A DNA stretch of 64,000 nucleotides from Alphaproteobacteria bacterium (lineage in GTDB: Bacteria > Pseudomonadota > Alphaproteobacteria > SHVV01), in the NCBI GenBank assembly GCA_965261735.1, contig OZ253470.1, forward strand, positions 2,496,001-2,560,000. Reading direction: 5' to 3'. Below, piece by piece: positions 5,563 through 36,485 of the stretch. The notes under the pieces are model-generated. The model worked only from the letters and a program-made list of their open reading frames with translations, had not been told where the DNA came from and made no database searches. Position numbers and translations under genes: made by a program. Position 1 is the stretch's first letter. Each line of letters begins with the position of its first letter.

Positions 5563-5569
5563 GGGGGAT

Positions 5570-17438: not shown

Positions 17439-18248
17439 ATGCCAGCCGCCACGGACAAGCTACGAATCGCGACCTGGAACATCAACTCGATCCGTCTGCG
17501 GCTGGCCGGCCTGCGCCGCGTCACCAAGGCCTTCGCGCCGGACGTGATCTGCCTCCAGGAGATCAAGGTGGCGAACGAGCTTTTCCCGCACGCGGCGGTG
17601 CGCGCCATGGGATACGCCCATGTCGCGGTCCACGGCCAGAAGAGCTATCACGGTGTGGCCATTCTCTCGCGCCTGCCGCTCACCGATATCGCGACACGCC
17701 AGTGGTGCGGGGTCGAAGATTGCCGCCACGTCCAGGCGCGCTTGCCCCACGGCATCGTGGTGCACAACTTTTATGTCCCCTCCGGCGGCGACGTCCCGGA
17801 CCCGCAGCACAACCCGAAGTTCGCCCCCAAGCTGAGGTTCCTGAGCAAGACGGCGGCGTGGTTCGAGGCCGAGCCGGTCGGCGACAAGTCGATCCTTGTC
17901 GGCGATCTCAACATCGCGCCGCTCGAGACCGACGTGTGGTCGCACAAGCAGCTCACGGGGGTCGTCTCGCATACGCCGATGGAAGTCGCGCACCTGGCGC
18001 GCCTGCAGTCGGCCTCGGCATGGATCGATGCGGTCCGCCACTTCGTACCGGCGAGCGAGCGCCTCTATACCTGGTGGAGCTATCGTGCCCGCGACTGGGC
18101 CGCCTCGGATCGCGGCCGCCGGCTCGATCATGTGTGGGCGACTCCGACGCTGGGGCCGGCGCTACGCGGCGCGCAGGTGATCCGCGAGGCGCGCGGCTGG
18201 CCCAAGGCCTCGGACCACGTCCCCGTCGTCGTCGACCTTGGCGTCTAG
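17439..18248 (+). CDS. xth: Exodeoxyribonuclease III
   Basis: TWNINS, CLQE.K, GDLN, YTWWSYR, RLDH, SDH.P. Confidence 0.95.
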   Translation: MPAATDKLRIATWNINSIRLRLAGLRRVTKAFAPDVICLQEIKVANELFPHAAVRAMGYAHVAVHGQKSYHGVAILSRLPLTDIATRQWCGVEDCRHVQARLPHGIVVHNFYVPSGGDVPDPQHNPKFAPKLRFLSKTAAWFEAEPVGDKSILVGDLNIAPLETDVWSHKQLTGVVSHTPMEVAHLARLQSASAWIDAVRHFVPASERLYTWWSYRARDWAASDRGRRLDHVWATPTLGPALRGAQVIREARGWPKASDHVPVVVDLGV

Positions 18249-18781
18249 GGCGCGATGGTGTCGGCGCGGTACATGAAGTAGCGCTCGGGGGCGACGCCCT
18301 CGGGCAACGCCACCTCGCTCAGCGCAGATGCCGACAGCGGCTGGTCGGCGACGATGACGCCGCCACTGGCCATCAGGGGCGCAAGCACCGGGCCGAGCCA
18401 GGCGGCAAGCTCGCCGGTCGCCTCACGATCGCCGCTGCCGATGTCGCAGTGCGCGAGCGCGGCGGGCGCGCCGGTCCGCGCCAGCGCGGCCGGTAGGGTT
18501 TCAGAGAAATCGCCGAGGATGAAATGGCTGGAATCGGGCGTGCTGTCGGGATGGGCGGCGCGGTGGCGGTCGAAGACGAAGATCGCCCGATCGGGGCACA
18601 GGGCGCGCAGATGATCGTAGGTGCGGCCGTTGCCGAGCCCTAGTTCGAGCACCGGTCCCGGCAGCTCGCGGACGAGCGCGGCCGCCGCGTCGAGGCAGAC
18701 GCGCTGGGCCCGCAAACGTGCGATGAAGCTGTCGAGGCGGCTGCGCCGCCGTGGCGCGCGATGGCCCGCGGAAACCGTCAC
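18245..18781 (-). CDS. Small class I SAM-dependent methyltransferase (Methyltransf_17-like)
   Basis: SRLDSFI.RL.AQR, LELGLGNGRTYDHLR, HCDIGSG; GTG start inferred. Confidence 0.82.
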   Translation of the reverse strand: MTVSAGHRAPRRRSRLDSFIARLRAQRVCLDAAAALVRELPGPVLELGLGNGRTYDHLRALCPDRAIFVFDRHRAAHPDSTPDSSHFILGDFSETLPAALARTGAPAALAHCDIGSGDREATGELAAWLGPVLAPLMASGGVIVADQPLSASALSEVALPEGVAPERYFMYRADTIAP

Positions 18782-18786
18782 CAGCG

Positions 18787-19236
18787 CTAGTTGTTGGCCG
18801 CCGATTTCATCAACTGCGAGGTCATCTTCTCCAGGCGCAGCGCCAGCACACGCATGATCTCGACCGCCATCTGCGGAAACTCGCCGACCAGCCGGAAGAA
18901 CAGATCCTTGGAGATCTTGAGCGCGGTCAGTTCGCCCTGCGCCTTGACCGTGGCCGTGCGCGGCACGTCGCATAGGATCGCGATCTCGCCGACGAAATCG
19001 TTCTTGCCGGCGTTGGCCACGGTCAGCGGCCCGTTGGGCGTGTTGACGATAACATCGGCATTGCCGTCAATGATGATGTAGGCGGCGTCGCCGATGTCGC
19101 CCTGGACCATCAGGTCCTGGCCGGGATGAAATGTCAGCCGCTCGCTCGTGAACGCCAGCAGCTTCAGCTTGGAGGGCTCGATCCGCGCAAACAGCGGGAT
19201 GTTTCGCAGTAGTTCGACTTCCTCGGTGAGGCTCAA
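18787..19236 (-). CDS. Stand-alone cyclic nucleotide-binding protein
   Basis: QGD.GD..YII..G, FVGEIA...PRTATV phosphate-binding cassette; no HTH. Confidence 0.92.
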   Translation of the reverse strand: MSLTEEVELLRNIPLFARIEPSKLKLLAFTSERLTFHPGQDLMVQGDIGDAAYIIIDGNADVIVNTPNGPLTVANAGKNDFVGEIAILCDVPRTATVKAQGELTALKISKDLFFRLVGEFPQMAVEIMRVLALRLEKMTSQLMKSAANN

Positions 19237-19255
19237 GGCAGTTCTCCCGGCAGCC

Positions 19256-21886
19256 CTATTCGGCCGCCAACATCTCGTTCAGATGCGTGCCGTCATGGTT
19301 GAGCTCGGCAAAGGTCCCCTGTTCGATGACCTTGCCTCCCCTCATGACGAGCACCTTGTCAAAGTCTTGGGCGAGATCGGCACGGTGAAGCGACCACACG
19401 AGGCCTCGGCCCGCGAATTCCTGGCGCAGGTTCGTCATTATCTTACCCTGGGACGCGCTATCCAGGGCCGCGGTCGCCTCGGACACGATGAGAATGTCGG
19501 GCCGCTTGAGCACGGCCCGAGCGATCGACAGCTTTTGCCGCTGCGCCCCGGACAGGCGCGAACCGGCGATGCCGACGTTATAGCCGAGTCCGACTTCGAT
19601 CACCGTGTCACGCAATCCCTGCTCCCGCACCACCTCGGAGACGAACTCGCCGACGCGCTCGCTCGAATGCGCCTGACCATAGGCGATCTTACCGAACAAG
19701 ATGTTATCTTGGATGTTGGCGACGCTGTTGTACTCCTCGGGATCGAACACCTCGACCGCGTCCTTGAGGTCTTCGGGCAGGTCGCGGTGGAAGGCCTCGC
19801 GTGCCTCCAGGAGCTTGGGCCGGATGTTCTCGTCGATAAGGCCCAGGCGGTGGCGCGCAGGAATGAGCATGAAGGGGAGGGAGAGCAGCTTGGTCCGGTC
19901 CTCCGGGCCCAACGTGTCGAGGTGATCGCGGTCGACGCGCGTCATCATCGCCTGCACGTCCGGCAGATCGTCGGAACTGATAAAGCTGAACTGCTGGAAG
20001 AGCTCGTGGTCCGGCGGCAGGTCGGCAAACAGCTCGACCATCGTCGCCGCCACCTGATAGCCGATGGACAGCAAGTCGGCGGTGAGCCCGACCTTGTCGA
20101 GGACGGACAGCACGTAGGCGTTCTCGGCCAACCGCTCGACGTTGAACACGTCCTTCACGGGGTGGCCGAACAGTAGGTTCTCGCCGACGGTCGCGTTGGT
20201 GTTGTACTGGGTGCGGTCGAAGGGCTCGATAAGCGCGGCGATCAAGGGTTCCTTGATGCGCTCGCGCAACGCCACTCGTGCGCGCAGGACCGCCGCGGCG
20301 AGTTCGGACTGGCTCTTGGGATCCACCGTGCCGCGCAGGCCCAGGCGGTAGACGTCCTCGTCGAGCCCGACGAGCTTGAGCACCTTGAGGCCGTAGGCCC
20401 GGAGCTCCTCCGGGCCTGCGGCACCGACCGAGCCATAGTCGATCCAGTCGGCCTCGATGTCGGCGGTCGAGTTGCCGGACCGCTCGGCCTCGTCGGCGAA
20501 GTCGCTGCCTGAGTCATTGTCGGCGCCGTCGGGTGGGCGGTGCTTGAGGCCGTAGAAGAGGTTGTCGCCGAGGGAGGCGGCGAAAACGAAGCCGTCCTGG
20601 CCGACGTAGGAAATGCGCCGCCCGGTGACGGCTTCGGGAAGTTCGCCTAGATCCGTGCCGTTGACGGTGATGCGGCCCTTGCTCGGCTCCAGGAGCCGCG
20701 CCATCAGTAAAGCAAGGTCCTCTTTGCCGCTGCCGCTGGAGCCGACCAGGGCGATGTGCTCGTCGAGCTTGAGCTTGACCGAGACGGCGTCGAGAACGTT
20801 CATGTCCTGATCGTCGGTGAGCGTCAGATTGGCGGTGGCAAGCTCCCCGGTAAGCCGCTCGACATCCGCCTCACCGGGCGCCTGGTACGATTCGTCCCGC
20901 ATGCCCGGCGGCGCGAACTGGCTCACTACCTGGTCGTACTTGATGCGCGCGTCCTCCATCATCTGGTAGTAGCGAAGCAGCTCCTTCCAGGGCGCCGCCA
21001 GATCCTTATGGGCGGCGATCGCGGCCATCAGCGTACCGATCTCGAGCTGACCGTCGATGACCAGGTAGCCACCGATCGAATAGAAGAAGAACGGCCCGAG
21101 TTGTTGGATGAAGTTGTTGAGAAACTTGATAACGAACTTTTGCCGATAGATCTCGTAGCGGACGTCGAAGATATTGCCGAGTCGGTGCGAGAACTCGGCG
21201 CGCGCCAGGTTCGACGTGTCGTGGGCATGGATCTCCTGCACCCCCTGGACCGTCTCGCCGATACGGTCCGACAAACGCCGCACCAGCTGCACGCGCTGTT
21301 TGCCGAGCTGGTTCACGCGCATCTGCAACTTGGGAATGATGTAGAGCTGCAGCGGATAGAGCGCCACGGCGGCGGCCGCCATCACCGGGTTCTGGACGAA
21401 AAGAAAAGCGAGAATGATCATCAATTGCCCGCCCTGGAAGGCGGGCAGCGAGTAGGCGTCGCCGACGAACCCGCCGAGCGGTTCGACCTCCTGGGTGATC
21501 ATCGGAATGATCTCACCCTGCGACATCTTGCGGAACGTCGGCAGCGGGAAGCGCAGCACCCGGCTGTAGAGGTCGTAGCGCAGCCGTCTGAGCATGCGCT
21601 CGCCGGTCAACCCCTTGTAAACATTGATGATGTACTTGAAAGCCTGGTTGATCACCACCAGCGCGAGGAATAGCCCGCACATGACGAAAAGGTAGGTCGT
21701 CTGGCTGAGGTCGTTACCGAAGAGGGAATAGGGCTCGGCGCGCCCCAGGATGGCGCCGTTGACGATGGCCTTGGGCACTTCATAGAAGGCGTAAAGGAAG
21801 GGAAACGAGACCGCGGCGAAGATCGTCAAAGTGACCTGCTGGCGCAGGCTGTAGCGCAAGATGTACTTAAATATACCCGGTTCCAT
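19256..21886 (-). CDS. Fused ABC exporter (TMD plus degenerate, expanded NBD)
   Basis: Six-TM domain with GERMLRRLRY; GSSGSGKE; LSGAQRQK; ILIVSEAT. Confidence 0.88.
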   Translation of the reverse strand: MEPGIFKYILRYSLRQQVTLTIFAAVSFPFLYAFYEVPKAIVNGAILGRAEPYSLFGNDLSQTTYLFVMCGLFLALVVINQAFKYIINVYKGLTGERMLRRLRYDLYSRVLRFPLPTFRKMSQGEIIPMITQEVEPLGGFVGDAYSLPAFQGGQLMIILAFLFVQNPVMAAAAVALYPLQLYIIPKLQMRVNQLGKQRVQLVRRLSDRIGETVQGVQEIHAHDTSNLARAEFSHRLGNIFDVRYEIYRQKFVIKFLNNFIQQLGPFFFYSIGGYLVIDGQLEIGTLMAAIAAHKDLAAPWKELLRYYQMMEDARIKYDQVVSQFAPPGMRDESYQAPGEADVERLTGELATANLTLTDDQDMNVLDAVSVKLKLDEHIALVGSSGSGKEDLALLMARLLEPSKGRITVNGTDLGELPEAVTGRRISYVGQDGFVFAASLGDNLFYGLKHRPPDGADNDSGSDFADEAERSGNSTADIEADWIDYGSVGAAGPEELRAYGLKVLKLVGLDEDVYRLGLRGTVDPKSQSELAAAVLRARVALRERIKEPLIAALIEPFDRTQYNTNATVGENLLFGHPVKDVFNVERLAENAYVLSVLDKVGLTADLLSIGYQVAATMVELFADLPPDHELFQQFSFISSDDLPDVQAMMTRVDRDHLDTLGPEDRTKLLSLPFMLIPARHRLGLIDENIRPKLLEAREAFHRDLPEDLKDAVEVFDPEEYNSVANIQDNILFGKIAYGQAHSSERVGEFVSEVVREQGLRDTVIEVGLGYNVGIAGSRLSGAQRQKLSIARAVLKRPDILIVSEATAALDSASQGKIMTNLRQEFAGRGLVWSLHRADLAQDFDKVLVMRGGKVIEQGTFAELNHDGTHLNEMLAAE

Positions 21887-22041
21887 GCGTTCGCCCTGTA
21901 CTGGCCACCGGCGCCCCCAAAAAGCCGTGATCTCGGGGCCGGCCGGCGCAACTGTAGACCAGCCGGCGAGGTCGGTAAACGCCGCGGTAGCGCCACAAAA
22001 ACCTATTTCGCGGCCCTGGGCCCTGTGCGATAGTGGCGCCC

Positions 22042-23298
22042 ATGTCCGACGACGGGGGAAAACGGCGCGCGGCGCGCGGCGCCGAGGGTGCGCGTGTTCT
22101 CATTTACAGCCACGACACGTTCGGTCTCGGCCATCTGAGCCGCTGTCGCACCATCGCCCACTCCCTGGTCGAGAACAACAAGCACCTCTCGGTGCTCATC
22201 CTCTCCGGCTCGCCCATCATCGGCAGCTTCCCGTTTCGCGCCCGCGTCGATTTCGTGCGCATCCCGGGGGTGATCAAGCTGCGCGACGGCGAATATACGG
22301 CGCTCGGGCTGCACATCGACATCGGCAACACGCTCGAGATGCGCTCCTCGATCATCCAGCGCACGGCCGAGACCTTCGGGCCCGACGTGTTCATCGTCGA
22401 CAAGGAGCCGTTGGGCCTGCGCGGCGAGGTCCACGAGACGCTGCGCGAGCTCAAGGAACGCGGCCGCACCCACATCGTCCTGGGGCTGCGCGACGTGCTC
22501 GACGAACCCACGCTCCTGGTCCCCGAGTGGCAGCGCAAGAATGCGGTTCCGGCACTCAGCGACTACTACGACGAAATCTGGATCTATGGTCTGCCGCAGA
22601 TCTGGGAGCCGCTCGCCTACTTCGATTTACCCAAGGACGTGCTACGCAAGATCGCCTATACCGGTTATCTGCGGCGCTCGGCCTCGGGCACGCCGCCGAC
22701 GACGCCCGTTTCGGAGATCACGCGCGGGCCCTATCTGCTGGTGACGACGGGCGGCGGCGGCGACGGCGAGGGGCTGATCGAGTGGGTGCTGCGCGCTTAC
22801 GAAACCGACCCCATGCTGCCGTACCCGGCGCTGCTGATGCTGGGGCCCTTCATGGTTCCCGAGCTGCAGGAGGGTTTCAAGGAGCGCGCCGCCCGCCTCA
22901 GCCGGGTCGAGGCGATCACGTTCGACCCGAACATGGAGAACCTGGAGCGCGATGCCGCCGGCATCGTCTCGATGGGTGGCTACAACACCTTTTGCGAAAT
23001 CCTGTCGCACGACCAGAGGGCGGTCATCGTTCCGCGCACGGTGCCGCGGCGCGAGCAGTATATCCGGGCCTCGCGGGCGCACGAACTCGGCCTCGCCCGC
23101 ATGCTCGAAGACGACGGAAACTACCAGCCCGAGGTCATGGCCGAGGCGCTCAGGGCTCTGCCCCGCCAGCGCCGGCCGAGCGAGGTCGTGGTCTCCGGGC
23201 TGTTGGAGGGCCTCGTCAACGTCAACCGGCTGGTCGAGCCCTGGATCACGCGGCGGGCGGAAAGCGACGACACCACGGTCATTCCGCACCGCGCCTGA
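22042..23298 (+). CDS. Predicted GT-B glycosyltransferase (COG4671-like)
   Basis: YSHDTFGLGHL.R, DKEP.G, TTGGGGDG, SMGGYNT.CE, EQ.IRA. Confidence 0.88.
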   Translation: MSDDGGKRRAARGAEGARVLIYSHDTFGLGHLSRCRTIAHSLVENNKHLSVLILSGSPIIGSFPFRARVDFVRIPGVIKLRDGEYTALGLHIDIGNTLEMRSSIIQRTAETFGPDVFIVDKEPLGLRGEVHETLRELKERGRTHIVLGLRDVLDEPTLLVPEWQRKNAVPALSDYYDEIWIYGLPQIWEPLAYFDLPKDVLRKIAYTGYLRRSASGTPPTTPVSEITRGPYLLVTTGGGGDGEGLIEWVLRAYETDPMLPYPALLMLGPFMVPELQEGFKERAARLSRVEAITFDPNMENLERDAAGIVSMGGYNTFCEILSHDQRAVIVPRTVPRREQYIRASRAHELGLARMLEDDGNYQPEVMAEALRALPRQRRPSEVVVSGLLEGLVNVNRLVEPWITRRAESDDTTVIPHRA

Positions 23299-23308
23299 GG
23301 GCCATTCC

Positions 23309-24535
23309 TTGACCGCGACGGTCGCCTTCGTGCTCAAGGGCTATCCGCGCCTGTCGGAGACGTTCATCTCGCAGGAAATCCTTGCCCTCGAGCGGCGCGG
23401 GCTCGATATCGCCATCGTCTCGCTGCGCCGGCCCACGGACCGCAAGGTCCATCCGCTCCACGGCCACATCAAGGCGAGCGTGCTGTACCTGCCGGAATAC
23501 CTGCACCAGGAGCCGCTTCGCGTGTGGCGGGCGTGGCGCCAGGCGCGGCGGCGGCGCGGCTATCGCGCGGCGCGCGCGGCGTGGTGGCGCGACCTTGCGC
23601 GAGATCCGACGCCGAACCGCGTGCGCCGCTTCGGTCAGGCGCTGGTTCTGAGCCACGAGCTTCCCGCCAAGGTCGACCGGCTGCACGCCCATTTCATCCA
23701 CACGCCGGCCTCGGTCGCACGCTATTGCAGCCTTCTCACCGGGTTGGCGTGGTCATGCTCGGCCCACGCCAAGGACATCTGGACGCTGGCCGACTGGGAG
23801 AAGACCGAAAAGCTCGAGGCCTGCGCCTGGGCGGTCACCTGCAGCGCCGCCAACCACAGCCACCTGACGCGCCTCGCACCGCCGGGGCAGGTCGAGCTCG
23901 TCTATCACGGGCTCGACGAAGCGCGCTTCCCGGCCCGCAACGAGCCGCTGTCCGCGCGCGACGGCGGCCGGGCCGAGGAGCCCGTCATGCTGCTTTCGGT
24001 CGGGCGCGCCGTTGAGAAAAAGGGTTATGACACTCTGCTTGCGGCGCTGGCGCTGGTGCCGGCCGAGCTGTGCTGGCGGCTCGTCCATGTCGGCGGCGGC
24101 CCGCTGTCGCGCCGCCTCCGGCGCACGGCCGAGGCGGCGCGGCTCAGCGCGCGCATCACCTGGCTTGGGCCTCAGGGCCACGACGAGGTGCTCCGCCAAT
24201 ACCGCGCCGCCGATCTGTTCATCCACCCGAGCCGGATCGCTCGCGACGGCGACCGCGACGGACTGCCCAACGTGTTGCTAGAGGCGGCCTCGCAGTCGCT
24301 CGCATGCATTGCCTCGCGGGTCTCGGGGATACCGGAGCTCGTCGATGACGGCGTTACGGGGCGCCTCGTCGCGCCCGACGATCCGGCGGTCCTCGCGGCT
24401 GCGATCGCGGAGCTGATCCGCGATCCGGCGCGGCGCCGGGCGCTCGGCGAAGCCGGCTATGCGCGCGTGCGCGAGGGCTTTACCCTGACCGCCGGCATCG
24501 ATCGCCTGGCATTGAAATTCGGCCTCGGCACCTGA
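23309..24535 (+). CDS. GT4 glycosyltransferase
   Basis: KGYPRLSETFI, HAHFIH, GRAVEKKG, DGLPNVLLEA; TTG start inferred. Confidence 0.92.
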   Translation: MTATVAFVLKGYPRLSETFISQEILALERRGLDIAIVSLRRPTDRKVHPLHGHIKASVLYLPEYLHQEPLRVWRAWRQARRRRGYRAARAAWWRDLARDPTPNRVRRFGQALVLSHELPAKVDRLHAHFIHTPASVARYCSLLTGLAWSCSAHAKDIWTLADWEKTEKLEACAWAVTCSAANHSHLTRLAPPGQVELVYHGLDEARFPARNEPLSARDGGRAEEPVMLLSVGRAVEKKGYDTLLAALALVPAELCWRLVHVGGGPLSRRLRRTAEAARLSARITWLGPQGHDEVLRQYRAADLFIHPSRIARDGDRDGLPNVLLEAASQSLACIASRVSGIPELVDDGVTGRLVAPDDPAVLAAAIAELIRDPARRRALGEAGYARVREGFTLTAGIDRLALKFGLGT

Positions 24536-24541
24536 GGTTTC

Positions 24542-28225: not shown

Positions 28226-28728
28226 CCGATTTGCGCTACCCCTTGGCCGCTCTCCGGGCCGATTACGGGCGCGCCGCGGTCGGCTTCGCGCTGACCGCGG
28301 GGCCACTCGCGTTCGCTTTTCCTTCACCGGCGGTGCGTTATGTTCTGATCGTGCTCGCGGGGCTGTTCGGGCTTTTCGCGCTGCGCACCGTGAGACGCCA
28401 GCTGACCCGTTTCGAGCTTTCCGAGGCAGGTCTTCGCGCGATCGGACCGCTCGGGTCGTCGCTGCACTGGGAAGACCTTCGCAGCGTCGAGCTGCGCTAC
28501 TTTTCGACGCGTCGCGACCGATCGGGAGGGTGGATGCAACTGCGAGTTAGAGGACGGGGACGCGCCTTGGCCCTCGATTCCGCGCTCGCCGGGTTCGATA
28601 CGATCGTGCGCTACGCCTTGGCCGAGGCGCAGGCGCGCGACGTCGTGGTGAGCCAAACGACCCACACCAATCTCTCGGCCTTGCCGAACCTGGAGCACGA
28701 TACCCCGGCACGGCTCGGAGGGCGGTGA
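28222..28728 (+). CDS. Hypothetical two-TM membrane protein
   Basis: Overlaps its neighbours in the operon; two TM helices, then LRYFSTRRDR..GWMQL. Confidence 0.72.
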   Translation: MTDLRYPLAALRADYGRAAVGFALTAGPLAFAFPSPAVRYVLIVLAGLFGLFALRTVRRQLTRFELSEAGLRAIGPLGSSLHWEDLRSVELRYFSTRRDRSGGWMQLRVRGRGRALALDSALAGFDTIVRYALAEAQARDVVVSQTTHTNLSALPNLEHDTPARLGGR

Positions 28729-28729
28729 A

Positions 28730-30619
28730 ATGGGCAACGTGCTGGTGGTTCGCGACCTCAAGGTCTGCTTCGAGCTCGCTGGCGGCCCGCTCACCGCGGT
28801 CGACGGTGTCTCGTTCCGCATCCCCGAAGGCCGGACCGTCGCTCTCGTTGGCGAATCGGGCTCGGGCAAGTCCGTCGTCGCGCAGTCGATCATGGGCATT
28901 CTACCGACCGCCGCATCCATCGCCGGCGGCGAGATTCTGTTCATGGACCCCGAAGGGGAGGGGCGCAAGCAGAACATCGCCGAGCTCGAGCGCGGCAGCA
29001 GGGCACTACGCAGCCTTCAGGGCGGGCGCATCTCTATTATTTTCCAGGAACCGATGACGTCGCTATCCCCGCTGCATACCATCGGCAATCAGATCGGCGA
29101 GGCCTTTCATCTGCACACGCAGGCGAGCAAGAGCGCGGGCACCGACGCGACCCGGGACATGCTGCGACTGGTCGGCTTCCCCGATCCGGACACGGCGCTC
29201 AGGACCTACCCGTTCGAGCTGTCGGGCGGCCTGCGCCAGCGCGCGATGATCGCCATGGCACTCGTGTGCCGGCCGGCAATCCTGATCGCGGATGAGCCGA
29301 CCACCGCGCTCGACGTCACGATCCAGGCCCAAATCCTCAAGCTGATGCAGGATCTGCAAACCGAGCTCGGCATGGCGATCCTGATGATCACGCACGACCT
29401 CGGCGTCGTTGCCAACATGGCCGAGGAAATCGTCGTCATGTACCACGGCAAGGTGGTGGAGCATGGTCGCCGGGACGACATCTTTCGCCGCTCGCGCCAT
29501 CCCTACCTGAGCGCGCTGCTCCATGCGGTGCCGCGCTTCAACATGAAGCGCGGCGAGCGGCTGGTGCCGATTCGCGAGATCAAGTCCGAAGGGGGACGCC
29601 TGCTCGCGGCCAAGGAACCGTGGCCCGACGGGAGCGACAACGGCACCCCGCTGCTGCAGGTCAAGAACCTGTGCAAGGCGTTTACCATCCGTAAGAAGGA
29701 GTGGTTTGGCGGCCGCGCCGGGGCTACGGCGACCGCCGTCAACGACGTATCCTTCGAAATCCATCGTGGCGAGTGCATGGCTCTCGTCGGCGAATCGGGC
29801 TGCGGCAAGACGACCACAAGTAAGATGTTGATGCGCGCGATTGGCGCCGACTCCGGGGAGATCGTCTTTAACGACCGCGGCCGCCCCATCGACGTGCTAG
29901 GCCTCAACGAAACTGAACTCAAGGACTACCGCCGCAGGGTCCAGTACATCTTCCAGGACCCCTTCGGCTCGCTCAACCCGCGCATGACCGTGCTCGACAT
30001 CGTGAACGAGCCCTTCGTCATCCACGGCATTGGCGACGAGGCGGAGCGCATCGAGCGCGTGCGTGAGCTCATGACACTGGTCGGGCTCGACCTGCGCCAC
30101 CTGCGGCGCTATCCCCACAGCTTCTCGGGCGGCCAGCGACAGCGCATCGGCATTGCGCGGGCGCTCGCTCTCCAGCCGGAGCTCCTCATTTGCGACGAGC
30201 CGGTGTCCGCGCTCGACGTTTCGATACAGGCCCAAATTCTTAATCTTCTCAAAGACTTGCAGTCCAAACTCGGTCTCACTTATCTGTTCATTTCGCATAA
30301 CCTGGCGGTGGTCGACTATATCTGCGACCGCATTGCCGTCATGTGTGCGGGCCGCGTCGTCGAGCTGGCGCCACGCGCGGCCTTCTTTACCAAGCCCATA
30401 CACCCCTACTCGAAGGCGCTGCTCGCCGCGGTGCCCGAGCCCAATCCTGAGGCGCGACTCGATTTGAGCGCGCTCATGGCGGGGCGCGCCTCGGACCCGG
30501 CGGCGTGGCCCGCGCCCTTCACGGTCGATGGCGGGCGGGAACCGGGTCTGGTCCATGTCGGCGACGGTCACTACGTGCGGGCCGCCGAAAACAGCTCGTT
30601 GAGGGAACTCGCATCATGA
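28730..30619 (+). CDS. Peptide/nickel-type ABC ATPase (two fused NBDs)
   Basis: GESGSGKS / LSGG / DEPTTALD and GESGCGKT / FSGGQ / DEPVSALD. Confidence 0.95.
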
Positions 30620-32538
30620 GCCGCACGCTTGCCATTGCTTTACCGAAGGCCCTCGCTGTCGCGGCGATCCTCGCCGGGCTGGCACTACCCTTGCCGTTAG
30701 CCGCTGCACCGTTTGTCGAAACGCCGATGCTGAAAGAGGCGATCGCGGCGGGGACGTTGCCGCCAATAGCCGAGCGCCTGCCCAACTCGCCGCGCGTCGT
30801 GGCGCTGACGAAGGGCAAGACGGTCGGCAAACACGGCGGCGAGCTTCGCACCCTTGTGGGCCGCGCCAAGGACGTCCGCCTTCTGGTGGTTTACGGCTAC
30901 GCCCGCCTCGTCGCCTACAGCGATCAGTTCGAGCTCGAGCCCGACATCCTCGAGTCCTTCGAGGTCGAGCACGGCCGAATCTTCACCTTCCGGCTCCGGC
31001 CCGGCCACAAATGGTCGGACGGGCACCCGTTGACCACCGAGGATTTCCGCTACTTCTGGGAGGACGTGGCCGGCAACGAGGAGCTCTCACCAGGCGGTCC
31101 CCCGCACGTCATGCTGGTCGACGGCGAGCGCCCGGTGTTCGAGGTCATCGACGAGACCACGGTCCGTTACACCTGGAGCCAGCCCAACCCCTACTTCCTT
31201 TCGGCGCTCGCCGGTGCCACTCCGCTCTTCGTCTATCGCCCGGCGCATTACCTCAAGCAGTTCCACATGCGCTACGCCGGGGAGCAGAAGATCGCCGACA
31301 TGGTCGAGGCCGAGGGCCAGCGCGACTGGGTGGCGCTGCACTTTCGCAAGGACCAGCTCTACAAGTTCGCCAATGTCGACATGCCGACGTTGCAGCCGTG
31401 GCGCAACACGACACGGCCGCCGGCGAATCGCTTCATCGGCGAGCGCAACCCCTTCTTCCACCGCGTCGACGAGCGCGGGCAGCAGCTCCCCTACATCGAC
31501 CGGGTGATCCTCGTCCAGGCCAACTCGAAGCTGATCCCCGCCAAGGCCGGCTCGGGCGAGGTCGATCTTCAAGCGCGCCACGTGTTCTTCAGCAACTACA
31601 CCTTCCTCAAGTCGAATGAGGAGCGCAACGACTTCACCACCCGTCTGTGGAGCGAGGCCAAAGGGTCGCACTTCACGCTCTACCCCAATCTCAACATCAG
31701 CGATCCGGAGTGGCGCCGCGTTTTTCGCGATGTGCGTTTCAGGCGAGCGATATCGCTGGCCATAGACCGTACGCTCATCAACGAGGTGCTGTTCTTCGGC
31801 CTGGCGCTGGAAAGCAACAATACGGTCCTGCCGCAGAGCCCGCTGTTCCGCGAGGAGTACCGGGTTACCTGGACCGAGTTCGACATCGACAAGGCGAACG
31901 CGATTCTCGACGAGATGGGCCTCGAACGCGGGAGCGACGGGATCCGCCAGCTGCCGGATGGACGTCCGCTCAACATCATCGTCGAAACCGCGGGTGAGAA
32001 CACCGAGGAAACCGACATCCTCGAGCTCATCCACGATACCTGGGGGGAGATCGGCATACGCCTGTTCACGCGGCCCTCGCAGCGCGAGGTGTTCCGCAAC
32101 CGAATCTTCGCGGGACAAACCATGATGTCGGTGTGGACCGGCTTCGAAAACGGCGTCCCCTCGGCCGACATGAGCCCGGCCGAACTCGCCCCGACCACGC
32201 AGCAGAACCTGCAGTGGCCGAAATGGGGCCAGTACTACGAAACCAGCGGCGGCGCCGGCGAGCCGCCAGACTTGGAGCCCGCGGCCGAGCTCCTGCGCCT
32301 CAACAACGTCTGGCGCAACGCGACGACGCGCACCGAGCGCGAAGAGATCTGGTCGCGCATGCTCAAGATCCACATGGAGCAGATGTTCACCATCGGTGTC
32401 ATCAGCGGCGTTCGCCAGCCGATCATCGTACACAACAGCCTGCGCAACGTTCCCGAGGAGGCCGTCTACGGCTGGGACCCGGGCGCGCAGTTCGGGGTCT
32501 ACCGGCCAGACACCTTCTGGTTCGCCACCGACGATTAG
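30616..32538 (+). CDS. ABC substrate-binding protein, family 5
   Basis: Signal peptide, GTLPPIAERLP, LR.GHKWSDG.P.T.ED, RFRRAISLAIDR. Confidence 0.93.
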   Translation: MSRTLAIALPKALAVAAILAGLALPLPLAAAPFVETPMLKEAIAAGTLPPIAERLPNSPRVVALTKGKTVGKHGGELRTLVGRAKDVRLLVVYGYARLVAYSDQFELEPDILESFEVEHGRIFTFRLRPGHKWSDGHPLTTEDFRYFWEDVAGNEELSPGGPPHVMLVDGERPVFEVIDETTVRYTWSQPNPYFLSALAGATPLFVYRPAHYLKQFHMRYAGEQKIADMVEAEGQRDWVALHFRKDQLYKFANVDMPTLQPWRNTTRPPANRFIGERNPFFHRVDERGQQLPYIDRVILVQANSKLIPAKAGSGEVDLQARHVFFSNYTFLKSNEERNDFTTRLWSEAKGSHFTLYPNLNISDPEWRRVFRDVRFRRAISLAIDRTLINEVLFFGLALESNNTVLPQSPLFREEYRVTWTEFDIDKANAILDEMGLERGSDGIRQLPDGRPLNIIVETAGENTEETDILELIHDTWGEIGIRLFTRPSQREVFRNRIFAGQTMMSVWTGFENGVPSADMSPAELAPTTQQNLQWPKWGQYYETSGGAGEPPDLEPAAELLRLNNVWRNATTRTEREEIWSRMLKIHMEQMFTIGVISGVRQPIIVHNSLRNVPEEAVYGWDPGAQFGVYRPDTFWFATDD

Positions 32539-32566
32539 GCCGTGGCGCGCGCGCCGGGACCTCCGC

Positions 32567-33592
32567 ATGCTTACTTACACCGTTCACCGCATCCTCATCA
32601 TGATCCCCACGCTGTTCGCGGTCAGCGTGCTCACGTTCATCATCATCCAGCTGCCTCCCGGCGACTACCTATCCAACCAGATCGCCGAAATGCAGGCACA
32701 GGGCGAGTCGGCGAACACCGAGAAGATCGAATTCCTGCGCCGCCAGTACGGGCTCGACCGGCCGCTCGTCATGCAATACGCGATTTGGGCCGGCGTGTGG
32801 CCGGGCGAGAACGGCTTCTCGGGCCTGCTGCAGGGCGACCTCGGCTACTCCTTCGAGTTCGACCTGCCCGTCGTCGACGTCGTCGGCGACCGGGTGTGGC
32901 TGTCGTTCCTGGTCTCGTTCTCGACCATCGTCTTCACCTGGGTCGTTTCGTTCCCGATCGGCGTCTACTCGGCGACACACCAATATAGCTGGGGAGACCA
33001 TTCGCTCACGTTCATCGGGTTCCTCGGCCTGGCGACGCCCAACTTCCTGCTCGCCCTGGTGCTGCTGTACTTCGCCAACGTGACCTTCGGGACCGCGATC
33101 GGCGGGCTCATGGACCCGCAGTATCTCGACCAACCCTGGACGTGGGCCAAGGCGCGCTCGGTCCTCGCGCACCTCTGGGTGCCGGTCGTGGTCATCGGCA
33201 CGTCGGGCACCGCCGGCATGATCCGGCGCCTGCGCGCCAATCTCCTGGACGAGCTGCAAAAGCAATACGTGACCACCGGCCGCGCCAAGGGCCTGCCGCC
33301 CTTTCGGCTGCTGCTGAAATACCCGCTGCGCATGGCGCTGAACCCCTTTATCGCCGACATCGGCAGCCTCCTGCCGCAGGTCATTTCCGGGGCGGCGATC
33401 GTATCGGTGGTGCTGTCCCTGCCGACGACCGGACCCATGCTCCTGCAGGCCCTGCAATCTCAGGATCAGTACCTCGCCGGCTCCTTCCTCATGGCGCTCG
33501 CGATGCTCACCGTCGTCGGCATGTTCCTCTCGGACCTGGCGCTGGCGGCGCTGGATCCGCGGATCCGGCTCGGCGGGGGAACGATGCGATGA
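32567..33592 (+). CDS. ABC permease (OppB/DppB-like)
   Basis: YGLDRP, GDLGYS, YVTTGRAKGL, LDPRIR. Confidence 0.93.
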   Translation: MLTYTVHRILIMIPTLFAVSVLTFIIIQLPPGDYLSNQIAEMQAQGESANTEKIEFLRRQYGLDRPLVMQYAIWAGVWPGENGFSGLLQGDLGYSFEFDLPVVDVVGDRVWLSFLVSFSTIVFTWVVSFPIGVYSATHQYSWGDHSLTFIGFLGLATPNFLLALVLLYFANVTFGTAIGGLMDPQYLDQPWTWAKARSVLAHLWVPVVVIGTSGTAGMIRRLRANLLDELQKQYVTTGRAKGLPPFRLLLKYPLRMALNPFIADIGSLLPQVISGAAIVSVVLSLPTTGPMLLQALQSQDQYLAGSFLMALAMLTVVGMFLSDLALAALDPRIRLGGGTMR

Positions 33593-34767
33593 GCACCACC
33601 GCGTGGGAGCGCGAGAGCGGGCCGCTCGACCACTACGTCTCGGCCGAGCCCTTCGATCCCTACTCCGTCGAGGCCATGACGCCGGCGCAGGAGCGCTTCT
33701 ATATGGCGTCGCAGTGGAAGATGATGTGGTGGAAGCTCAGGCGCCACCGCATCGCCGTGATCGCCGGTGTGATTCTTCTCGTCGCGTATCTATCGATCTT
33801 CATCTCCGAGTTCATCGCCCCCTACGACCTGCACACGCGCGATGCGCGCCACATCTATGCGCCGCCCCAGGGGATACACCTGTTTCATGAGGGGGCGTTC
33901 GTTGGGCCGTTCGTGTACGGCTACAAGCGAAGCCTGAACATGACGACCCTGCAGCGCGAGTACACGCCCGACCCCGCCAAGGTGCAGCGCGTGCGCTTTT
34001 TCTGCCGCGGCGACGACTACCGCTTCTGGGGCCAGATCGAGGGTCGCTTCCACTTCTTCTGCCCGGCCGAGCGCGGCACGCTCCATCTTCTCGGCACCGA
34101 CCGCCTGGGCCGCGACATGTTCTCGCGCATCGTTTACGGGACGCGCATCTCGCTCTCGGTGGGATTGCTCGGCATCACCGTGAGTTTCCTGCTCGGCCTC
34201 TTTTTCGGCGGCCTGTCGGGCTATTACGGGGGTTGGGTCGACACCGCGGTGCAGCGGCTGATCGAGATCATGCGCTCGTTCCCCGAGCTGCCGCTGTGGA
34301 TGGCGCTGTCGGCGGCGCTGCCGGTGACCTGGAGCCCGATCTTCATCTATTTCGGGATCACCATCATTCTCGGGCTCCTGGACTGGACGGGCCTCGCCCG
34401 GGCGGTCCGATCCAAGCTTCTGGCGCTGCGCGAGGAGGACTTCTGCACGGCCGCGATCCTGCTCGGGGCGCCGCCGTCGCGCGTGATCGTGCGCCACCTG
34501 CTGCCCAGTTTCATGAGCCACCTGATCGCTTCGGCGACCCTGTCGGTGCCGTCGATGATTCTCGGCGAGACCGCGCTCTCGTTCCTCGGTCTCGGCTTGC
34601 GCCCGCCGATCACGAGCTGGGGCGTGCTGCTGAACGAGGCCCAGAACATCAACGTCGTCGCCCTCTACCCGTGGCTCATGCTGCCGGTGGTCCCGGTGAT
34701 CATCGTGGTCCTCGCGCTCAACTTCTTTGGCGACGGGCTGCGCGACGCCGCCGACCCCTACAAATAG
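33589..34767 (+). CDS. ABC permease (OppC/DppC-like)
   Basis: LGTDRLGRD, RHLLP, ETALSFLGLG, GDGLRDA.DP. Confidence 0.93.
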   Translation: MSTTAWERESGPLDHYVSAEPFDPYSVEAMTPAQERFYMASQWKMMWWKLRRHRIAVIAGVILLVAYLSIFISEFIAPYDLHTRDARHIYAPPQGIHLFHEGAFVGPFVYGYKRSLNMTTLQREYTPDPAKVQRVRFFCRGDDYRFWGQIEGRFHFFCPAERGTLHLLGTDRLGRDMFSRIVYGTRISLSVGLLGITVSFLLGLFFGGLSGYYGGWVDTAVQRLIEIMRSFPELPLWMALSAALPVTWSPIFIYFGITIILGLLDWTGLARAVRSKLLALREEDFCTAAILLGAPPSRVIVRHLLPSFMSHLIASATLSVPSMILGETALSFLGLGLRPPITSWGVLLNEAQNINVVALYPWLMLPVVPVIIVVLALNFFGDGLRDAADPYK

Positions 34768-34773
34768 GCGCGC

Positions 34774-35625
34774 CTAGGGTTCGCGTTTGCGCAGCCACAG
34801 GCTCGATTCGTAGGCCCCTGGGGGGAGCGGCAGCTCGGCTATGACCGACGCCGAGACGCGATCGGCCATGGCCTGCGTAGCGTAGTGGCTGGCGAACAGG
34901 GGCTGCCAGCCACCGCCCTGAAGGAGCGCCGCCACCGCCTGCTGCTCGTTGTAGCCGCGCCACGCCCACTCCGGGGGATAGGGGTCGGGCAGGAAGATGT
35001 CGTGCAGGTGCACGAGCACGCCCGGCGCGAGGCCGGGCAGGACGTGGTTGAGCAGTACATCGACATCACTGCCCGGCATCAGCACGTGGCTCGAATCAAC
35101 GATCAGCATGTCGCCCGCGGCCAGCGCCGCGAAGGCCGCGCGGCCGGCGCCGCCCGCGCCCTGGACGGTGGAGCGAATGAGCGTGATGGGGAGACCCGCG
35201 AGCGCCGCCCGCGGGGCCGGGTCGATGGCGGTGATGTCGCGCGCGATACCGGCGTCGCGCGCGGCGCGCGCGACGAAGCGCGTCGAATGGCCCGACCCCA
35301 CCTCGACGATGCGCTCGGGCCGATGATGGCGAACCATGGCATAGAGCGCAGCCCCATCGAGGCGCGGAAACCAGTCCTGCGCCCAGCGTGGCGCGGGCGC
35401 CGCCTCGCCGCCGATGGCGCGCAACTCTGCGGCATAACGATCGATGAGCGACAGCATCTCGGCAAACGCCCCGGCGCGCGCGGCAAAGAGCGCGGCCGTC
35501 GACTCATAGCGCCGGCGAACGTCGCTCGGCGTGAGCGCCGCGGCATAACGGTAGGGGATGAAAAAGCCCCGGCGCGCGAGCCCGAGGACCGTTGCCAGGC
35601 CCATCACGAGGCGGCGCGGCGTCAC
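34774..35625 (-). CDS. Class I SAM-dependent methyltransferase (Methyltransf_24-like)
   Basis: VEVGSGHST, IVDSSH, HLHDIFLP..YP, YNEQ. Confidence 0.85.
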   Translation of the reverse strand: MTPRRLVMGLATVLGLARRGFFIPYRYAAALTPSDVRRRYESTAALFAARAGAFAEMLSLIDRYAAELRAIGGEAAPAPRWAQDWFPRLDGAALYAMVRHHRPERIVEVGSGHSTRFVARAARDAGIARDITAIDPAPRAALAGLPITLIRSTVQGAGGAGRAAFAALAAGDMLIVDSSHVLMPGSDVDVLLNHVLPGLAPGVLVHLHDIFLPDPYPPEWAWRGYNEQQAVAALLQGGGWQPLFASHYATQAMADRVSASVIAELPLPPGAYESSLWLRKREP

Positions 35626-35651
35626 CGCTGCCCCCGCTCAGGCCACCGCAA

Positions 35652-36485
35652 TCACGGCCTCAGCACCATACCCTCACGGGCCACCACCGAGCCCGGCCGG
35701 CGCTGTTCGACCAGGGCTGCGATCTCGTCCATGAACGCGTCGTCGTGGTCGGGGTCATGGTGAAACACGACGAACTGCTTGACCCCCGCGGCGTCGCACA
35801 ACCTAACCCCTTCCTCCCATGTCGAGTGGCCGAAGCCGCGGCGCCGGGGAAGCTCCTCCTCGGTGAACATCGAATCGTAGATGGCTATGTCGGCGCCCTC
35901 GATAAGGTTGAGGATGTTCTGGTTGGGTTCGCCGTCGACGTGCTCGGTGTCGGTCAGGTAACAGATCGACTTGCCGGCGAATTCGACGCGATAGCCCGTG
36001 GCCCCGTTGGGGTGCCTGAGGGGCGCGGTGCGCAGCGTCACGCCGGGCTTGGGGTTGAGCGTTTCGCCCATGCGAAAATCACGAAACGAGATCTCTGCGG
36101 CGAAGATCTCGAGCGGCACCGGGAACAAAGGCGCCATCATCATCTCCGACAACACGATGCGCAGATTGAGCTCGGGCATCAAATGGCCGGCCCACATGCG
36201 AAAGGTATTGTCGGGGTTGAACGCGGGCTTGAAGAAGGGCAGGCCGACGACGTGGTCGAAGTGGGTGTGAGTGAGAAACAGATCGGCATCGAGTGGCGCT
36301 TCGGCGAGTAGCGAATCACCGAGCTTGCGAAAGCCGGTCCCGGCGTCGAACATGAGCAGATGCTCGCCGCAGCGGATTTCGAGGCTCGAGGTGTTGCCGC
36401 CATAGCGGACCGTTTCGGGGCCCGCGCAGGCGACGCTGCCGCGCACGCCCCAAAAACGGACGAGAAAATCCTCCTTGGCGGCCAC
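35652..36485 (-). CDS. MBL-fold metallohydrolase (phosphodiesterase/RNase Z-like)
   Basis: FWGVRGS, YGGNT, DAGTG, THTHFDH, GHST, FHHDP; GGAGGTGA SD before a GTG. Confidence 0.9.
   Translation of the reverse strand: MAAKEDFLVRFWGVRGSVACAGPETVRYGGNTSSLEIRCGEHLLMFDAGTGFRKLGDSLLAEAPLDADLFLTHTHFDHVVGLPFFKPAFNPDNTFRMWAGHLMPELNLRIVLSEMMMAPLFPVPLEIFAAEISFRDFRMGETLNPKPGVTLRTAPLRHPNGATGYRVEFAGKSICYLTDTEHVDGEPNQNILNLIEGADIAIYDSMFTEEELPRRRGFGHSTWEEGVRLCDAAGVKQFVVFHHDPDHDDAFMDEIAALVEQRRPGSVVAREGMVLRP

Follow-up and report, generated by a model that had tools for sequence, protein, structure and literature searches.

Introduction

What does a gene cluster do that places four glycosyltransferases (GTs) and two transport systems of the ATP-binding cassette (ABC) kind beside a stand-alone protein for binding cyclic nucleotide monophosphates (cNMPs)? 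We met this question in a stretch of 64,000 nucleotides from an alphaproteobacterium (contig OZ253470.1 of assembly GCA_965261735.1, positions 2,496,001 to 2,560,000; the whole stretch is called the window here, and positions count from its first nucleotide). A first-pass annotation, made from the letters of the window alone, had proposed that the locus makes, modifies, exports and re-imports a small oligoglycoside under cNMP control. To our knowledge, cAMP and cGMP signalling in Alphaproteobacteria involves many cyclases, and its outputs are mostly unknown.

Here we report that the genes of the locus recur together in three classes of Proteobacteria, that the cyclic-nucleotide-binding (CNB) protein is predicted to dock on an exporter-like protein with degenerate ATPase motifs, and that some related clusters include a nucleotidyl cyclase. 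The reading we prefer, tentatively and at slightly less than an even chance, is a cNMP-gated system that makes, releases and retrieves a small glycoside carrying a de-N-acetylated amino sugar; we infer the product, its size and the direction of flux.

Results

Two divergent operons and two convergent genes make up the locus

Open reading frame (ORF) listing and scans with Pfam and NCBIfam models found 17 intact genes within 18245-36539 of the window, among them every gene that the first-pass annotation had listed. On the minus strand lies an operon for an ABC-exporter-like protein (ABCexp), the CNB protein, whose gene begins 19 bp past the end of the ABCexp gene, and, as the last gene, a methyltransferase of the Methyltransf_17 family (MT17). 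Reading the sequence, we presume that the promoters lie in the divergent intergenic region (21887-22032) between this operon and a plus-strand operon, which starts at 22033 (or at ATG 22042) and ends at 34767. The plus-strand operon encodes, in order, GT28a, GT4a, GT4b, a histidine phosphatase, GT28b, a deacetylase-like protein (PDA), a 168-aa membrane protein, a fused ATPase, a substrate-binding protein (SBP) and two permeases. Neighbouring genes in it overlap by 4 bp or lie at most 28 bp apart, so the tight coupling proposed for it holds. Convergent on it are a methyltransferase (MT24) and a hydrolase of the metallo-beta-lactamase (MBL) fold; both had been predicted, but in the reverse of the order we find, as the methyltransferase is the nearer and the hydrolase lies beyond it. 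An Rfam scan of 17000-38500 gave no family, and hence no riboswitch.

The cluster genes recur together in Alpha-, Beta- and Gammaproteobacteria

For comparative work we took PDA as the marker. We aligned 20 relatives with the window PDA and scanned one genome per species with the alignment; PDA relatives numbered 4749 proteins at E<=0.001 among the candidates scored. At least 599 stretches matched and at least 532 were confirmed, and the marker is present in at least 532 species-representative genomes. The best 80 stretches were taken with up to 10 kb per side, mostly from Rhodospirillales and other Alphaproteobacteria, with about 12 labelled Gammaproteobacteria (including Marinobacterium) and four labelled Betaproteobacteria or Casimicrobiaceae. 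We then compared 19 window proteins with these 80 loci by tblastn. Raw counts were 71 for GT28b, 68 for GT28a, 62 each for GT4a and GT4b, 54 each for the phosphatase and the ATPase, 53 and 52 for the permeases, 49 each for the SBP and the 168-aa protein, 47 for the CNB protein and 43 for ABCexp, with the accessory genes MT17, MBL and MT24 at 30, 27 and 21.

Because many of the contigs were short, we recounted in the 45 loci with full 10-kb flanks. GT4a and GT28b were each found in 43 of these, GT4b in 41, GT28a in 40, permease 2 in 39, permease 1 in 38, the ATPase in 36, the SBP and the phosphatase in 35 each, the CNB protein in 34, ABCexp in 32 and the 168-aa protein in 31; the accessory genes were again rarer (MBL 22, MT17 21, MT24 16). 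Three genes that flank the cluster in the window served as controls: of the 45 loci, 9 have the response regulator, 6 have xth and 2 have the enoyl-CoA hydratase. Thus, the co-occurrence across Proteobacteria by which the first-pass annotation had wished to be judged is borne out, with cluster genes in 31 to 43 of 45 loci and flanking controls in 2 to 9. At least three of the four GTs were present in 43 of the 45 loci, and these 43 included both permeases in 37, the CNB protein in 34, ABCexp in 32 and all three in 28. Two of the 45 loci (L038 and L039) have PDA without GTs.

The genes stay together in at least three distinct orders. Alpha-type loci have the order of the window; the Azospirillum type has an inverted GT28a-GT4a-GT4b-phosphatase block, with ABCexp-CNB joined to GT28b-PDA; and in the gamma/beta type there are separate blocks of GT28a-GT28b-PDA, GT4a-GT4b-phosphatase, ABCexp and the importer. 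Two sub-blocks, GT4a-GT4b-phosphatase and GT28b-PDA, are conserved: the phosphatase gene follows GT4b wherever it is present, and GT28b directly precedes PDA in the mapped loci. The 168-aa protein and MT24 are confined to alpha-type loci. That the genes remain together despite differing order argues for a functional unit, and these comparisons support the view that the cluster is one conserved unit of linked genes. As to the case of unrelated neighbours, the flanking genes do not co-occur with the cluster, which rules out simple hitch-hiking.

Some relatives carry insertions. In six Azospirillum-type loci an ORF of about 406 aa without a Pfam match lies between GT4b and GT4a (1620-2840 of L024, and in L030, L031, L033, L047 and L066), although ORF calls around it are ambiguous at this high GC content. 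The same place holds a PanB (ketopantoate hydroxymethyltransferase) gene in three sponge- or marine-associated loci (L013 11878-12816, L018 9157-10026, L068 11933-12829), followed in L013 by a 2OG-Fe(II) oxygenase. In two Rhodospirillales metagenome-assembled genomes, the space between ABCexp and GT28a holds a gene (L041 2553-4382, L069 1971-3875) for a HAD-hydrolase-domain protein of about 610-630 aa.

The exporter-like protein has degenerate ATPase motifs

The first-pass annotation had called ABCexp an atypical exporter. The 876-aa protein (19256-21886, minus strand) matches ABC_membrane with 79 bits and ABC_tran split in two stretches. Its AlphaFold model (pLDDT 84.3) has the six-helix membrane domain of a type IV exporter and resembles ABCB1 (P-glycoprotein), TmrAB, PCAT1 and the cyclic-glucan transporter Cgt. 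The fold of a canonical ABC exporter is therefore present, but a catalytically competent nucleotide-binding domain is not, as judged by four motifs: Walker A GxxGxGK[ST], Walker B hhhhDE, the Q-loop Gln and the H-loop His. The window protein reads GSSGSGKE at Walker A and ILIVSE at Walker B. Across 41 sequences (the window protein and 40 orthologues from the loci), the Walker A Ser/Thr is kept in 3, with Asp/Glu in its place in 35, and the Walker A Lys in 18, with Arg in 14. At Walker B, the Asp survives in 2 sequences and gives way to Asn in 25 and to Ser in 9. The Q-loop Gln remains in 15, the H-loop His in 21 and the catalytic Glu in 26. The signature motif is kept (Leu 39/41, Ser 33/41, Gln 39/41), as is the D-loop Asp (40/41).

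Given these motifs, the usual hydrolysis of ATP by ABCexp is unlikely and ATP-driven export is doubtful, and in this respect the earlier assignment as an exporter is weakened. The exchanges at residues 388-389 and 802-803 are themselves regular, with an acidic residue after the Walker A Lys/Arg in 35 of 41 sequences and Asn or Ser for the Walker B Asp in 34 of 41; such a pattern could mean that the Mg-ligand positions were swapped and did not simply decay.

Between the Q-loop and the signature motif, ABCexp has an insert of about 280 residues (456-735) that holds repeats of the segment preceding the signature motif. Copies 2 and 3 align with a score of 72 (z=9.3; reached by 0 of 300 shuffles), copies 1 and 2 with z=3.4 (2 of 300 shuffles) and copies 1 and 3 with z=2.6 (9 of 300). 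Mean conservation is highest in the membrane domain (0.69), and the insert (0.61) is no less conserved than the core of the nucleotide-binding domain (0.54-0.59). An ABC partner protein that combines a dead ATPase with such an insert appears not to have been described in the literature searched.

A protein with these traits need not be a passage at all. ABCexp might be a cNMP-responsive membrane regulator that, in the manner of SUR, switches the GT machinery or the importer. Its catalytic motifs are degenerate while its membrane domain is more conserved (0.69) than the rest (0.54-0.61), the CNB protein is modelled as docking on it (see below), and a cluster without ABCexp, L067, retains the GTs and the importer. 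We nevertheless think such a role improbable: a fully conserved six-helix exporter fold is most simply understood as a substrate path, and the canonical ABC exporter beside MT17 in a Rhizobium leguminosarum variant suggests that something is exported. That exporter has normal GSGKT and LDEAT motifs, by contrast with ABCexp; we had considered it as an ABCexp orthologue and rejected it, as the two can be aligned only in the nucleotide-binding domain.

The CNB protein is predicted to bind the insert of ABCexp

The CNB protein (149 aa; 18787-19236, minus strand) matches PF00027 (cNMP_binding) with 62 bits and has the Gly-Glu ... Arg-Thr/Ser-Ala cassette that marks a cNMP-binding domain. Across 41 sequences, again those of the window and 40 orthologues, the phosphate-binding cassette shows no variation at G83 and R93, while conservation at E84, A95 and T96 is at least 90%. 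It also matches TIGR03896, a family of 'bacteriocin-type transport-associated' CNB proteins, weakly (35.4 bits).

Three observations speak for a physical link between this domain and the exporter-like protein. First, in 34 of the 41 loci with both genes, the CNB gene directly follows that of ABCexp and shares its strand. Second, natural fusions occur: the plasmid AZO_p4 of Azospirillum lipoferum 4B encodes a 1048-aa protein that is an ABCexp-type exporter with a C-terminal CNB domain (exporter part 37% identical over 863 residues, insert included; CNB part E=2e-11), and 17 cluster representatives among 50 database matches are exporter-CNB fusions, from Azospirillum and one metagenome-assembled Rhodospirillum. 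Third, we modelled ABCexp residues 331-876 together with the CNB protein, each with its own alignment, and the complex scored 0.65, against 0.00 for the best control; 116 of 157 solved complexes attain this mark, as do 2 of 215 mismatched pairs, counts that are rough here because we used our own alignments. At least 95% of contacts are shared between runs, and the partner has a pLDDT of at least 81. The modelled contacts link ABCexp residues 548, 618-633, 679-682 and 736-740 to CNB residues 1-6, 22-42 and 111-119, and overlap invariant or near-invariant residues on both sides (E618, F620 and H679-L681 of ABCexp; K25, L26 and F29 of the CNB protein). Modelling thus supports binding of the CNB protein to the ABCexp insert.

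Taken further, ABCexp might be an ABC-fold homodimer with dead ATP sites, in which the duplicated helical subdomain serves as a docking platform and a separate cyclic-nucleotide receptor opens or closes the path. It would then be a new kind of membrane device in bacteria, a functional counterpart of CFTR or SUR, giving second-messenger-cued release of a cytoplasmic amino-glycoside that the importer retrieves. We offer this specific form of the proposal as unlikely, though worth stating.

Some related clusters include a membrane-bound nucleotidyl cyclase

Recurrent gaps within related clusters encode a nucleotidyl cyclase of class III (PF00211, 40-100 bits), whose N-terminal membrane domain has multiple helices and is conserved. 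Homologues occur in 29 of the 80 loci; 28 are strong and lie in or beside the cluster, and the one in L073 is weak. In alpha loci the cyclase gene lies between the last permease and MT24, and in gamma loci it adjoins the CNB gene and GT28a; the beta loci L019 and L048 also have it. The first-pass annotation had asked whether a cyclase co-occurs, and the answer is positive: one sits in the cluster in those 28 loci, or in 18 of the 45 with full flanks. The window has no cyclase of the cluster type, and any cyclase that serves it would be encoded elsewhere.

In seven gamma/beta loci, a protein of about 210-240 aa without a Pfam match is encoded between the CNB gene and the cyclase gene (L007 1053-1778, L025 5566-6195, L062 5365-6018, L020 6258-6938, and in L019, L034 and L048). 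Missing from the window, it may be a further member of the signalling module.

An enzyme for the opposite reaction may be encoded by the MBL gene (35652-36539, minus strand, if ATG 36539 is the start; Lactamase_B_2, 78.6 bits in Pfam). By its matches, the protein falls among the RNase Z/ElaC-like phosphodiesterases of this fold: NCBIfam scans gave RNase Z with 64.6 bits and the cyclic-nucleotide-degrading phosphodiesterase NF041851 with 34.9 bits against a cut-off of 400, both weak, and in the PDB its profile scored about 40 bits with ElaC1 and RNase Z but reached only E=0.038 with yeast PDE1 (4ojv). Because the phosphodiesterase family match is weak, we put forward a role in cNMP turnover, or as a sugar-phosphodiester hydrolase, as a suggestion.

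We also weighed an anti-phage system of the Pycsar kind. In PADLOC, the CNB protein scores 52.6 bits against the CNB domains of Pycsar effectors, and the cluster cyclases match PycC models with 62-85 bits. The similarity is that of a generic domain, however, as the cyclases score 40-100 bits against the general Pfam model; none of the other ten proteins tested matched PADLOC, save for generic ABC matches of ABCexp; and the locus lies in the origin-proximal core chromosome by ftsK, lolA and xth and is syntenic across classes. Membership in Pycsar itself, which calls for a cyclase and a CNB-domain effector with a TIR or transmembrane killing domain, was rejected, the 149-aa CNB protein having no effector domain and matching PADLOC in its CNB domain only, with no cyclase in the window. 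Together with the case of unrelated neighbours considered above, we hold a Pycsar-like system to be very improbable.

The enzymes suggest a glycosylation, dephosphorylation and deacetylation pathway

Two of the four GTs belong to the retaining family 4. GT4a (23309-24535, plus strand, TTG start; Glycos_transf_1, 117.7 bits) has PimB' (3oka, 63.5 bits) as its best PDB match, followed by 6kih, which we take to be sucrose-phosphate synthase, and BshA-type enzymes. GT4b (24542-25708, plus strand; assigned by Pfam) best matches 3c4q/3c48 with 82.7 bits; these entries are labelled 'predicted glycosyltransferases' and are presumably Corynebacterium glutamicum MshA. GT4b is not itself an MshA or BshA equivalog, scoring 70.2 against the MshA cut-off of 462.5 and 71.5 against the BshA cut-off of 273.7. 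The histidine phosphatase of branch 1 (25705-26310, plus strand; His_Phos_1, 145.6 bits), whose gene overlaps the GT4b stop codon by 4 bp, is below all NCBIfam equivalog cut-offs.

GT28a (22033-23298, or from ATG 22042, plus strand) and GT28b (26307-27467, plus strand) are GT-B enzymes of the GT1/GT28-like kind; the first-pass annotation had called them COG4671-like, but the only match of each is a weak one to Glyco_tran_28_C (28.9 and 42.1 bits). GT28a had no significant sequence match in the PDB, even with a profile, and an Atlas search returned just 'glycosyltransferase'. The GT28b profile distantly matches MurG (7d1i, 41.7 bits) and small-molecule GT1 enzymes, namely YjiC (6kqw, 38.7 bits), CalG and OleD.

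PDA (27443-28225, plus strand) matches DUF2334 weakly by sequence, does not match the Pfam model of carbohydrate esterase family 4 (CE4), and gave nothing useful in a PDB sequence search. Its AlphaFold model (pLDDT 94.6) was more informative: the top 50 Foldseek matches were mostly CE4 enzymes (E down to 1.2e-8; TM, normalised to the query, 0.53-0.63), headed by a CE4 acetylxylan esterase, peptidoglycan N-acetylglucosamine (GlcNAc) deacetylases, chitin deacetylases and ArnD. At the positions of the catalytic and metal motifs of CE4, PDA has invariant residues (D33-D35, H85, H89, H222 and H223), so that fold, Asp-Asp motif and His-x-x-x-His metal motif are all in place for a NodB-type deacetylase. 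As we saw no signal peptide, PDA is presumably cytoplasmic, like NodB.

The conserved sub-blocks, and a GT4b-PDA pair that is kept in all variants examined in detail (window-type loci and three plasmid variants), point to glycosylation of a phosphorylated acceptor, dephosphorylation and deacetylation of an amino sugar. The order of GT4b, phosphatase and CE4 deacetylase fits the earlier suggestion that a GT and a phosphatase work through a phosphorylated intermediate. The same logic governs the early steps of mycothiol, bacillithiol and glycosylphosphatidylinositol (GPI) synthesis.

Three further proteins may act on the product or beside it. MT17 (PF12692, 194.5 bits; 18245-18784, minus strand, start uncertain within 18775-18784) is an S-adenosylmethionine (SAM)-dependent methyltransferase, and MT24 (PF13578, 44.8 bits; 34774-35625, minus strand) an accessory class I methyltransferase of the Methyltransf_24 family. 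The 168-aa protein (28222-28728, plus strand) has two N-terminal hydrophobic helices, read by eye, and no Pfam or NCBIfam match; an Atlas search gave bPH_6, a bacterial PH-like domain, with a score of 0.94 and 159 shared features, a weak result that we treat as a lead only.

The same enzymes could be read as building an envelope glycolipid or glycoconjugate. The GTs would assemble a short glycan on a membrane lipid, in a GT4 step like that of GPI or phosphatidylinositol mannosides followed by de-N-acetylation, the MsbA-like protein would flip it, and the importer would recycle shed fragments. Of the NCBIfam models, MsbA (226.6 bits) and HepA (220.9 bits) do give the membrane domain of ABCexp its best scores, GT4a has a lipid-acceptor enzyme as its best PDB match, the GT28b profile matches MurG, a small membrane protein is co-transcribed, and ArnD, a CE4 enzyme for a lipid-linked sugar, is among the fold matches of PDA. 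Set against this, energised flipping is unlikely with degenerate ATP sites, GT28b matches YjiC, CalG and OleD about as well as MurG, and a dedicated high-affinity importer would be unusual for an envelope lipid. The locus is also short of machinery: among its 17 proteins, Pfam and NCBIfam found no initiating phosphoglycosyltransferase, no ABC-2 exporter and no Wzm/Wzt/KpsMT. As the first-pass annotation had stated, there are no Wzx/Wzy, nucleotide-sugar synthesis or capsule-export domains at 18-36.5 kb in the same scans. A polysaccharide locus of the ABC-transporter-dependent or Wzy-dependent kind was accordingly rejected, its defining domains being missing. We consider a glycolipid product unlikely.

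The binding protein of the importer groups with oligosaccharide binders

A full Opp/Dpp-type importer of family 5 is encoded, as had been proposed; its gene order, corrected here, is ATPase, SBP, permease, permease. The ATPase (28730-30619, plus strand) is a fused OppD/OppF-type double protein with ABC_tran in two stretches and oligo_HPY; it is GsiA-like (607 bits), below the cut-off. The periplasmic SBP (30616-32538, plus strand; 640 aa, with a signal peptide) matches SBP_bac_5 with 185.8 bits. Permease 1 (OppB/DppB type; 32567-33592, plus strand), 61-83% identical in relatives, and permease 2 (OppC/DppC type; 33589-34767, plus strand) match BPD_transp_1 with 97.4 and 94.8 bits, together with BPD_transp_1_N and OppC_N, respectively.

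The claim that the SBP binds an oligosaccharide fared unevenly. Its PDB matches are 5ipw (302 bits), SPH1118 (223), the alpha-galactoside binder 6epy (94) and peptide binders (at most 56), so that the nearest structures with named ligands bind pectin and alpha-galactosides, but the top match, 5ipw, carries no named ligand and is annotated as a 'putative oligopeptide-binding protein'. For a peptide as substrate, no equivalog cut-off was reached. SPH1118 of Sphingomonas sp. A1 is reported to bind pectin and to serve chemotaxis and assimilation (PMC9314435, PMC7055323). It and the MelB-type alpha-galactoside binders share with the window protein the build of large (about 620-680 aa) family 5 SBPs, but the window SBP scores higher against 5ipw than against SPH1118.

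These matches also suit a locus that works inwards. An environmental oligosaccharide, such as a fragment of a plant or algal polysaccharide, might be imported, remodelled or stored by the cytoplasmic GTs, phosphatase and deacetylase, with the cNMP reporting its availability. In keeping with this, the SBP groups with pectin and alpha-galactoside binders, and on pSymB of Sinorhizobium meliloti the orthologous importer (SBP 53% identical) adjoins a PF14099 polysaccharide lyase and a cyclase. Yet clusters of the window type encode neither a glycoside hydrolase nor a lyase nor any catabolic enzyme, the presence of four GTs beside two methyltransferases indicates synthesis, and the exporter-like protein would be left without a role. 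We rate import and remodelling as improbable.

Plasmid-borne variants keep GT4b and PDA together

The first-pass annotation had named similar neighbourhoods in rhizobia and roseobacters, and this proved right. The PDA marker occurs on 259 plasmid or chromid records, including those of Rhizobium and Sinorhizobium. On R. leguminosarum pRle248d, a cyclase and an FkbM methyltransferase are divergent from GT4-PDA, and nearby are an MBL gene, MT17 with the canonical ABC exporter, a DUF3095 gene and a second cyclase. Besides the lyase and the importer, the S. meliloti pSymB variant has a GT4, an MscS-type channel, GT4-PDA, an MBL gene adjoining PDA, a DUF3095 gene, a nucleotide-sugar dehydrogenase and the cyclase. 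The GT4 next to PDA there is the orthologue of GT4b (43% identity over the full length, vs 34% over 156 residues for GT4a). The pSymB channel is a 706-aa protein of the MscS family, without a CNB domain by Pfam, whose gene (8691-10811 of L082) lies between the GT4 gene and GT4b-PDA; in this variant, which has no ABCexp, it may be an alternative exit route. A third variant, the paralogous cluster on AZO_p4 of A. lipoferum 4B, comprises MT17, exporter, importer, membrane protein, GT4, GT4, phosphatase, GT and PDA. MT17 adjoins an ABC exporter gene on both the R. leguminosarum and the A. lipoferum plasmids.

Surroundings of the cluster in the window

The cluster lies in the origin-proximal core chromosome, with ftsK, lolA and xth upstream and leuS, parAB, mnmG and mnmE downstream. 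At the start of the window, 1712-5645 holds a DDE transposase (1712-2920) and a tyrosine integrase (4201-5391), both on the minus strand and next to tRNA-Ala(cgc) (5570-5645); the GC content is 0.62-0.65 there, against about 0.70 elsewhere, and the segment looks like an integrated mobile element. Sulfation-related genes lie at 42286-50427; their products are a 563-aa protein that has an APS kinase domain at its C-terminus, a Sulfotransfer_1 protein, a porin and a protein with TPR and Sulfotransfer_3 domains. A sulfotransferase is also encoded near the related cluster on S. meliloti pSymB.

Discussion

Our results allow an outline of how the favoured system, the making, gated release and retrieval of an amino-glycoside, might work. 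For synthesis, MshA-like GT4b would put a sugar, probably GlcNAc, on a phosphorylated acceptor, the translationally coupled histidine phosphatase would take the phosphate off, and GT28b, GT28a and GT4a would extend the product with more sugars. The cytoplasmic CE4 enzyme would then de-N-acetylate (or de-O-acetylate) one residue, and the two methyltransferases may decorate what would be a small oligoglycoside with a free amino sugar. ABCexp would be the membrane path for its exit, and because its ATP sites are degenerate, it is probably a gated conduit or regulator and not an ATP-driven pump, a step that rests in part on structure prediction. Comparison and modelling suggest that the CNB protein, seated on the insert, couples ABCexp to the cyclic nucleotide, which in relatives would be made by the membrane class III cyclase of the cluster and possibly degraded by the MBL-fold enzyme. 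The Opp-type importer, whose SBP groups with oligosaccharide binders, may recapture the compound or a fragment of it.

Several findings weigh against this outline. The degenerate ATPase argues against 'export' in the ordinary sense. The window has no homologue of the cluster-type cyclase at E<=1e-3, and 27 of the 45 full-flank relatives have no cyclase within 10 kb. Three alpha loci (L054, L067 and L072) keep the CNB gene without ABCexp, so other targets of the CNB protein are possible, and the fused Azospirillum paralogue, as aligned, does not have the modelled docking motifs. The ligand might differ as well: CNB domains can take other ligands, as that of HetC binds ppGpp in vitro (PMC10986499). 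On the transport side, there is the annotation of 5ipw, and on pSymB the orthologous importer adjoins a polysaccharide lyase and not GTs, which is compatible with uptake of foreign polysaccharide fragments. Lastly, the enzyme specificities are drawn from distant similarity that does not identify product, donor or acceptor, and all NCBIfam matches are far below the family cut-offs.

No characterised pathway, which would have undercut the proposal, was matched among family models, solved structures and full-text literature, with subscription journals and bioRxiv supplements outside that scope. The locus combines known kinds of parts: a glycoside pathway, a CNB-regulated ABC protein and an Opp-type importer. 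In the early steps of mycothiol (MshA, a phosphatase, MshB) and bacillithiol (BshA, BshB) synthesis, and in two-step osmolyte pathways (SPS/SPP, GpgS/GpgP), a GT4 enzyme is likewise followed by a phosphatase or a deacetylase, and the window GT4s also match BshA, PimA/B and a sucrose-phosphate-synthase-like protein in the PDB. Unlike the thiol pathways, the locus has a deacetylase of the CE4 and not the LmbE/PIG-L fold, no Cys ligase, and three more GTs, two methyltransferases and two transport systems. Its order of events is similar to that of Nod-factor synthesis (NodC, NodB, NodS, NodIJ), in which an oligosaccharide is assembled in the cytoplasm, de-N-acetylated by a CE4 enzyme, methylated from SAM and passed out by an ABC-type system. 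It differs in having no GT2 chitin-oligosaccharide synthase, acyltransferase or ABC-2 NodIJ; its GTs are of the GT4 and GT1/28-like kinds.

CFTR and SUR, ABC proteins with the role of a gated channel or of a regulator, offer an analogy. They share with ABCexp the exporter fold, non-canonical ATP sites, an extra regulatory region and control through cyclic-nucleotide signalling. Homology is limited to the ABC fold, however; both sites of the presumed ABCexp homodimer are degenerate, and a CNB protein modelled as docking directly stands in place of a phosphorylated R domain.

The closest known device is HetC of Nostoc PCC 7120, which is likewise a type IV ABC exporter fold with a CNB domain. HetC is a PCAT-type exporter with an N-terminal CNB domain needed for function, a C39 peptidase domain and an essential ATPase catalytic residue (PMC10986499). 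ABCexp, by contrast, has no Peptidase_C39 match in Pfam and degenerate ATPase motifs, and its CNB partner is a separate protein (a C-terminal fusion in Azospirillum) modelled on the insert of the nucleotide-binding domain. Where the CNB domain of HetC bound ppGpp, relatives of the window cluster encode cyclases within the cluster.

For a group of bacteria with many cyclases, the cluster is a concrete and widespread candidate for an output module, in which a biosynthetic pathway is combined with a cyclase, a minimal receptor and a membrane partner. If ABCexp does work without ATP hydrolysis under the control of the CNB protein, it would extend the known roles of ABC folds in bacteria. In plant-associated and marine bacteria, the glycoside itself might prove to be a new signal, solute or surface molecule.

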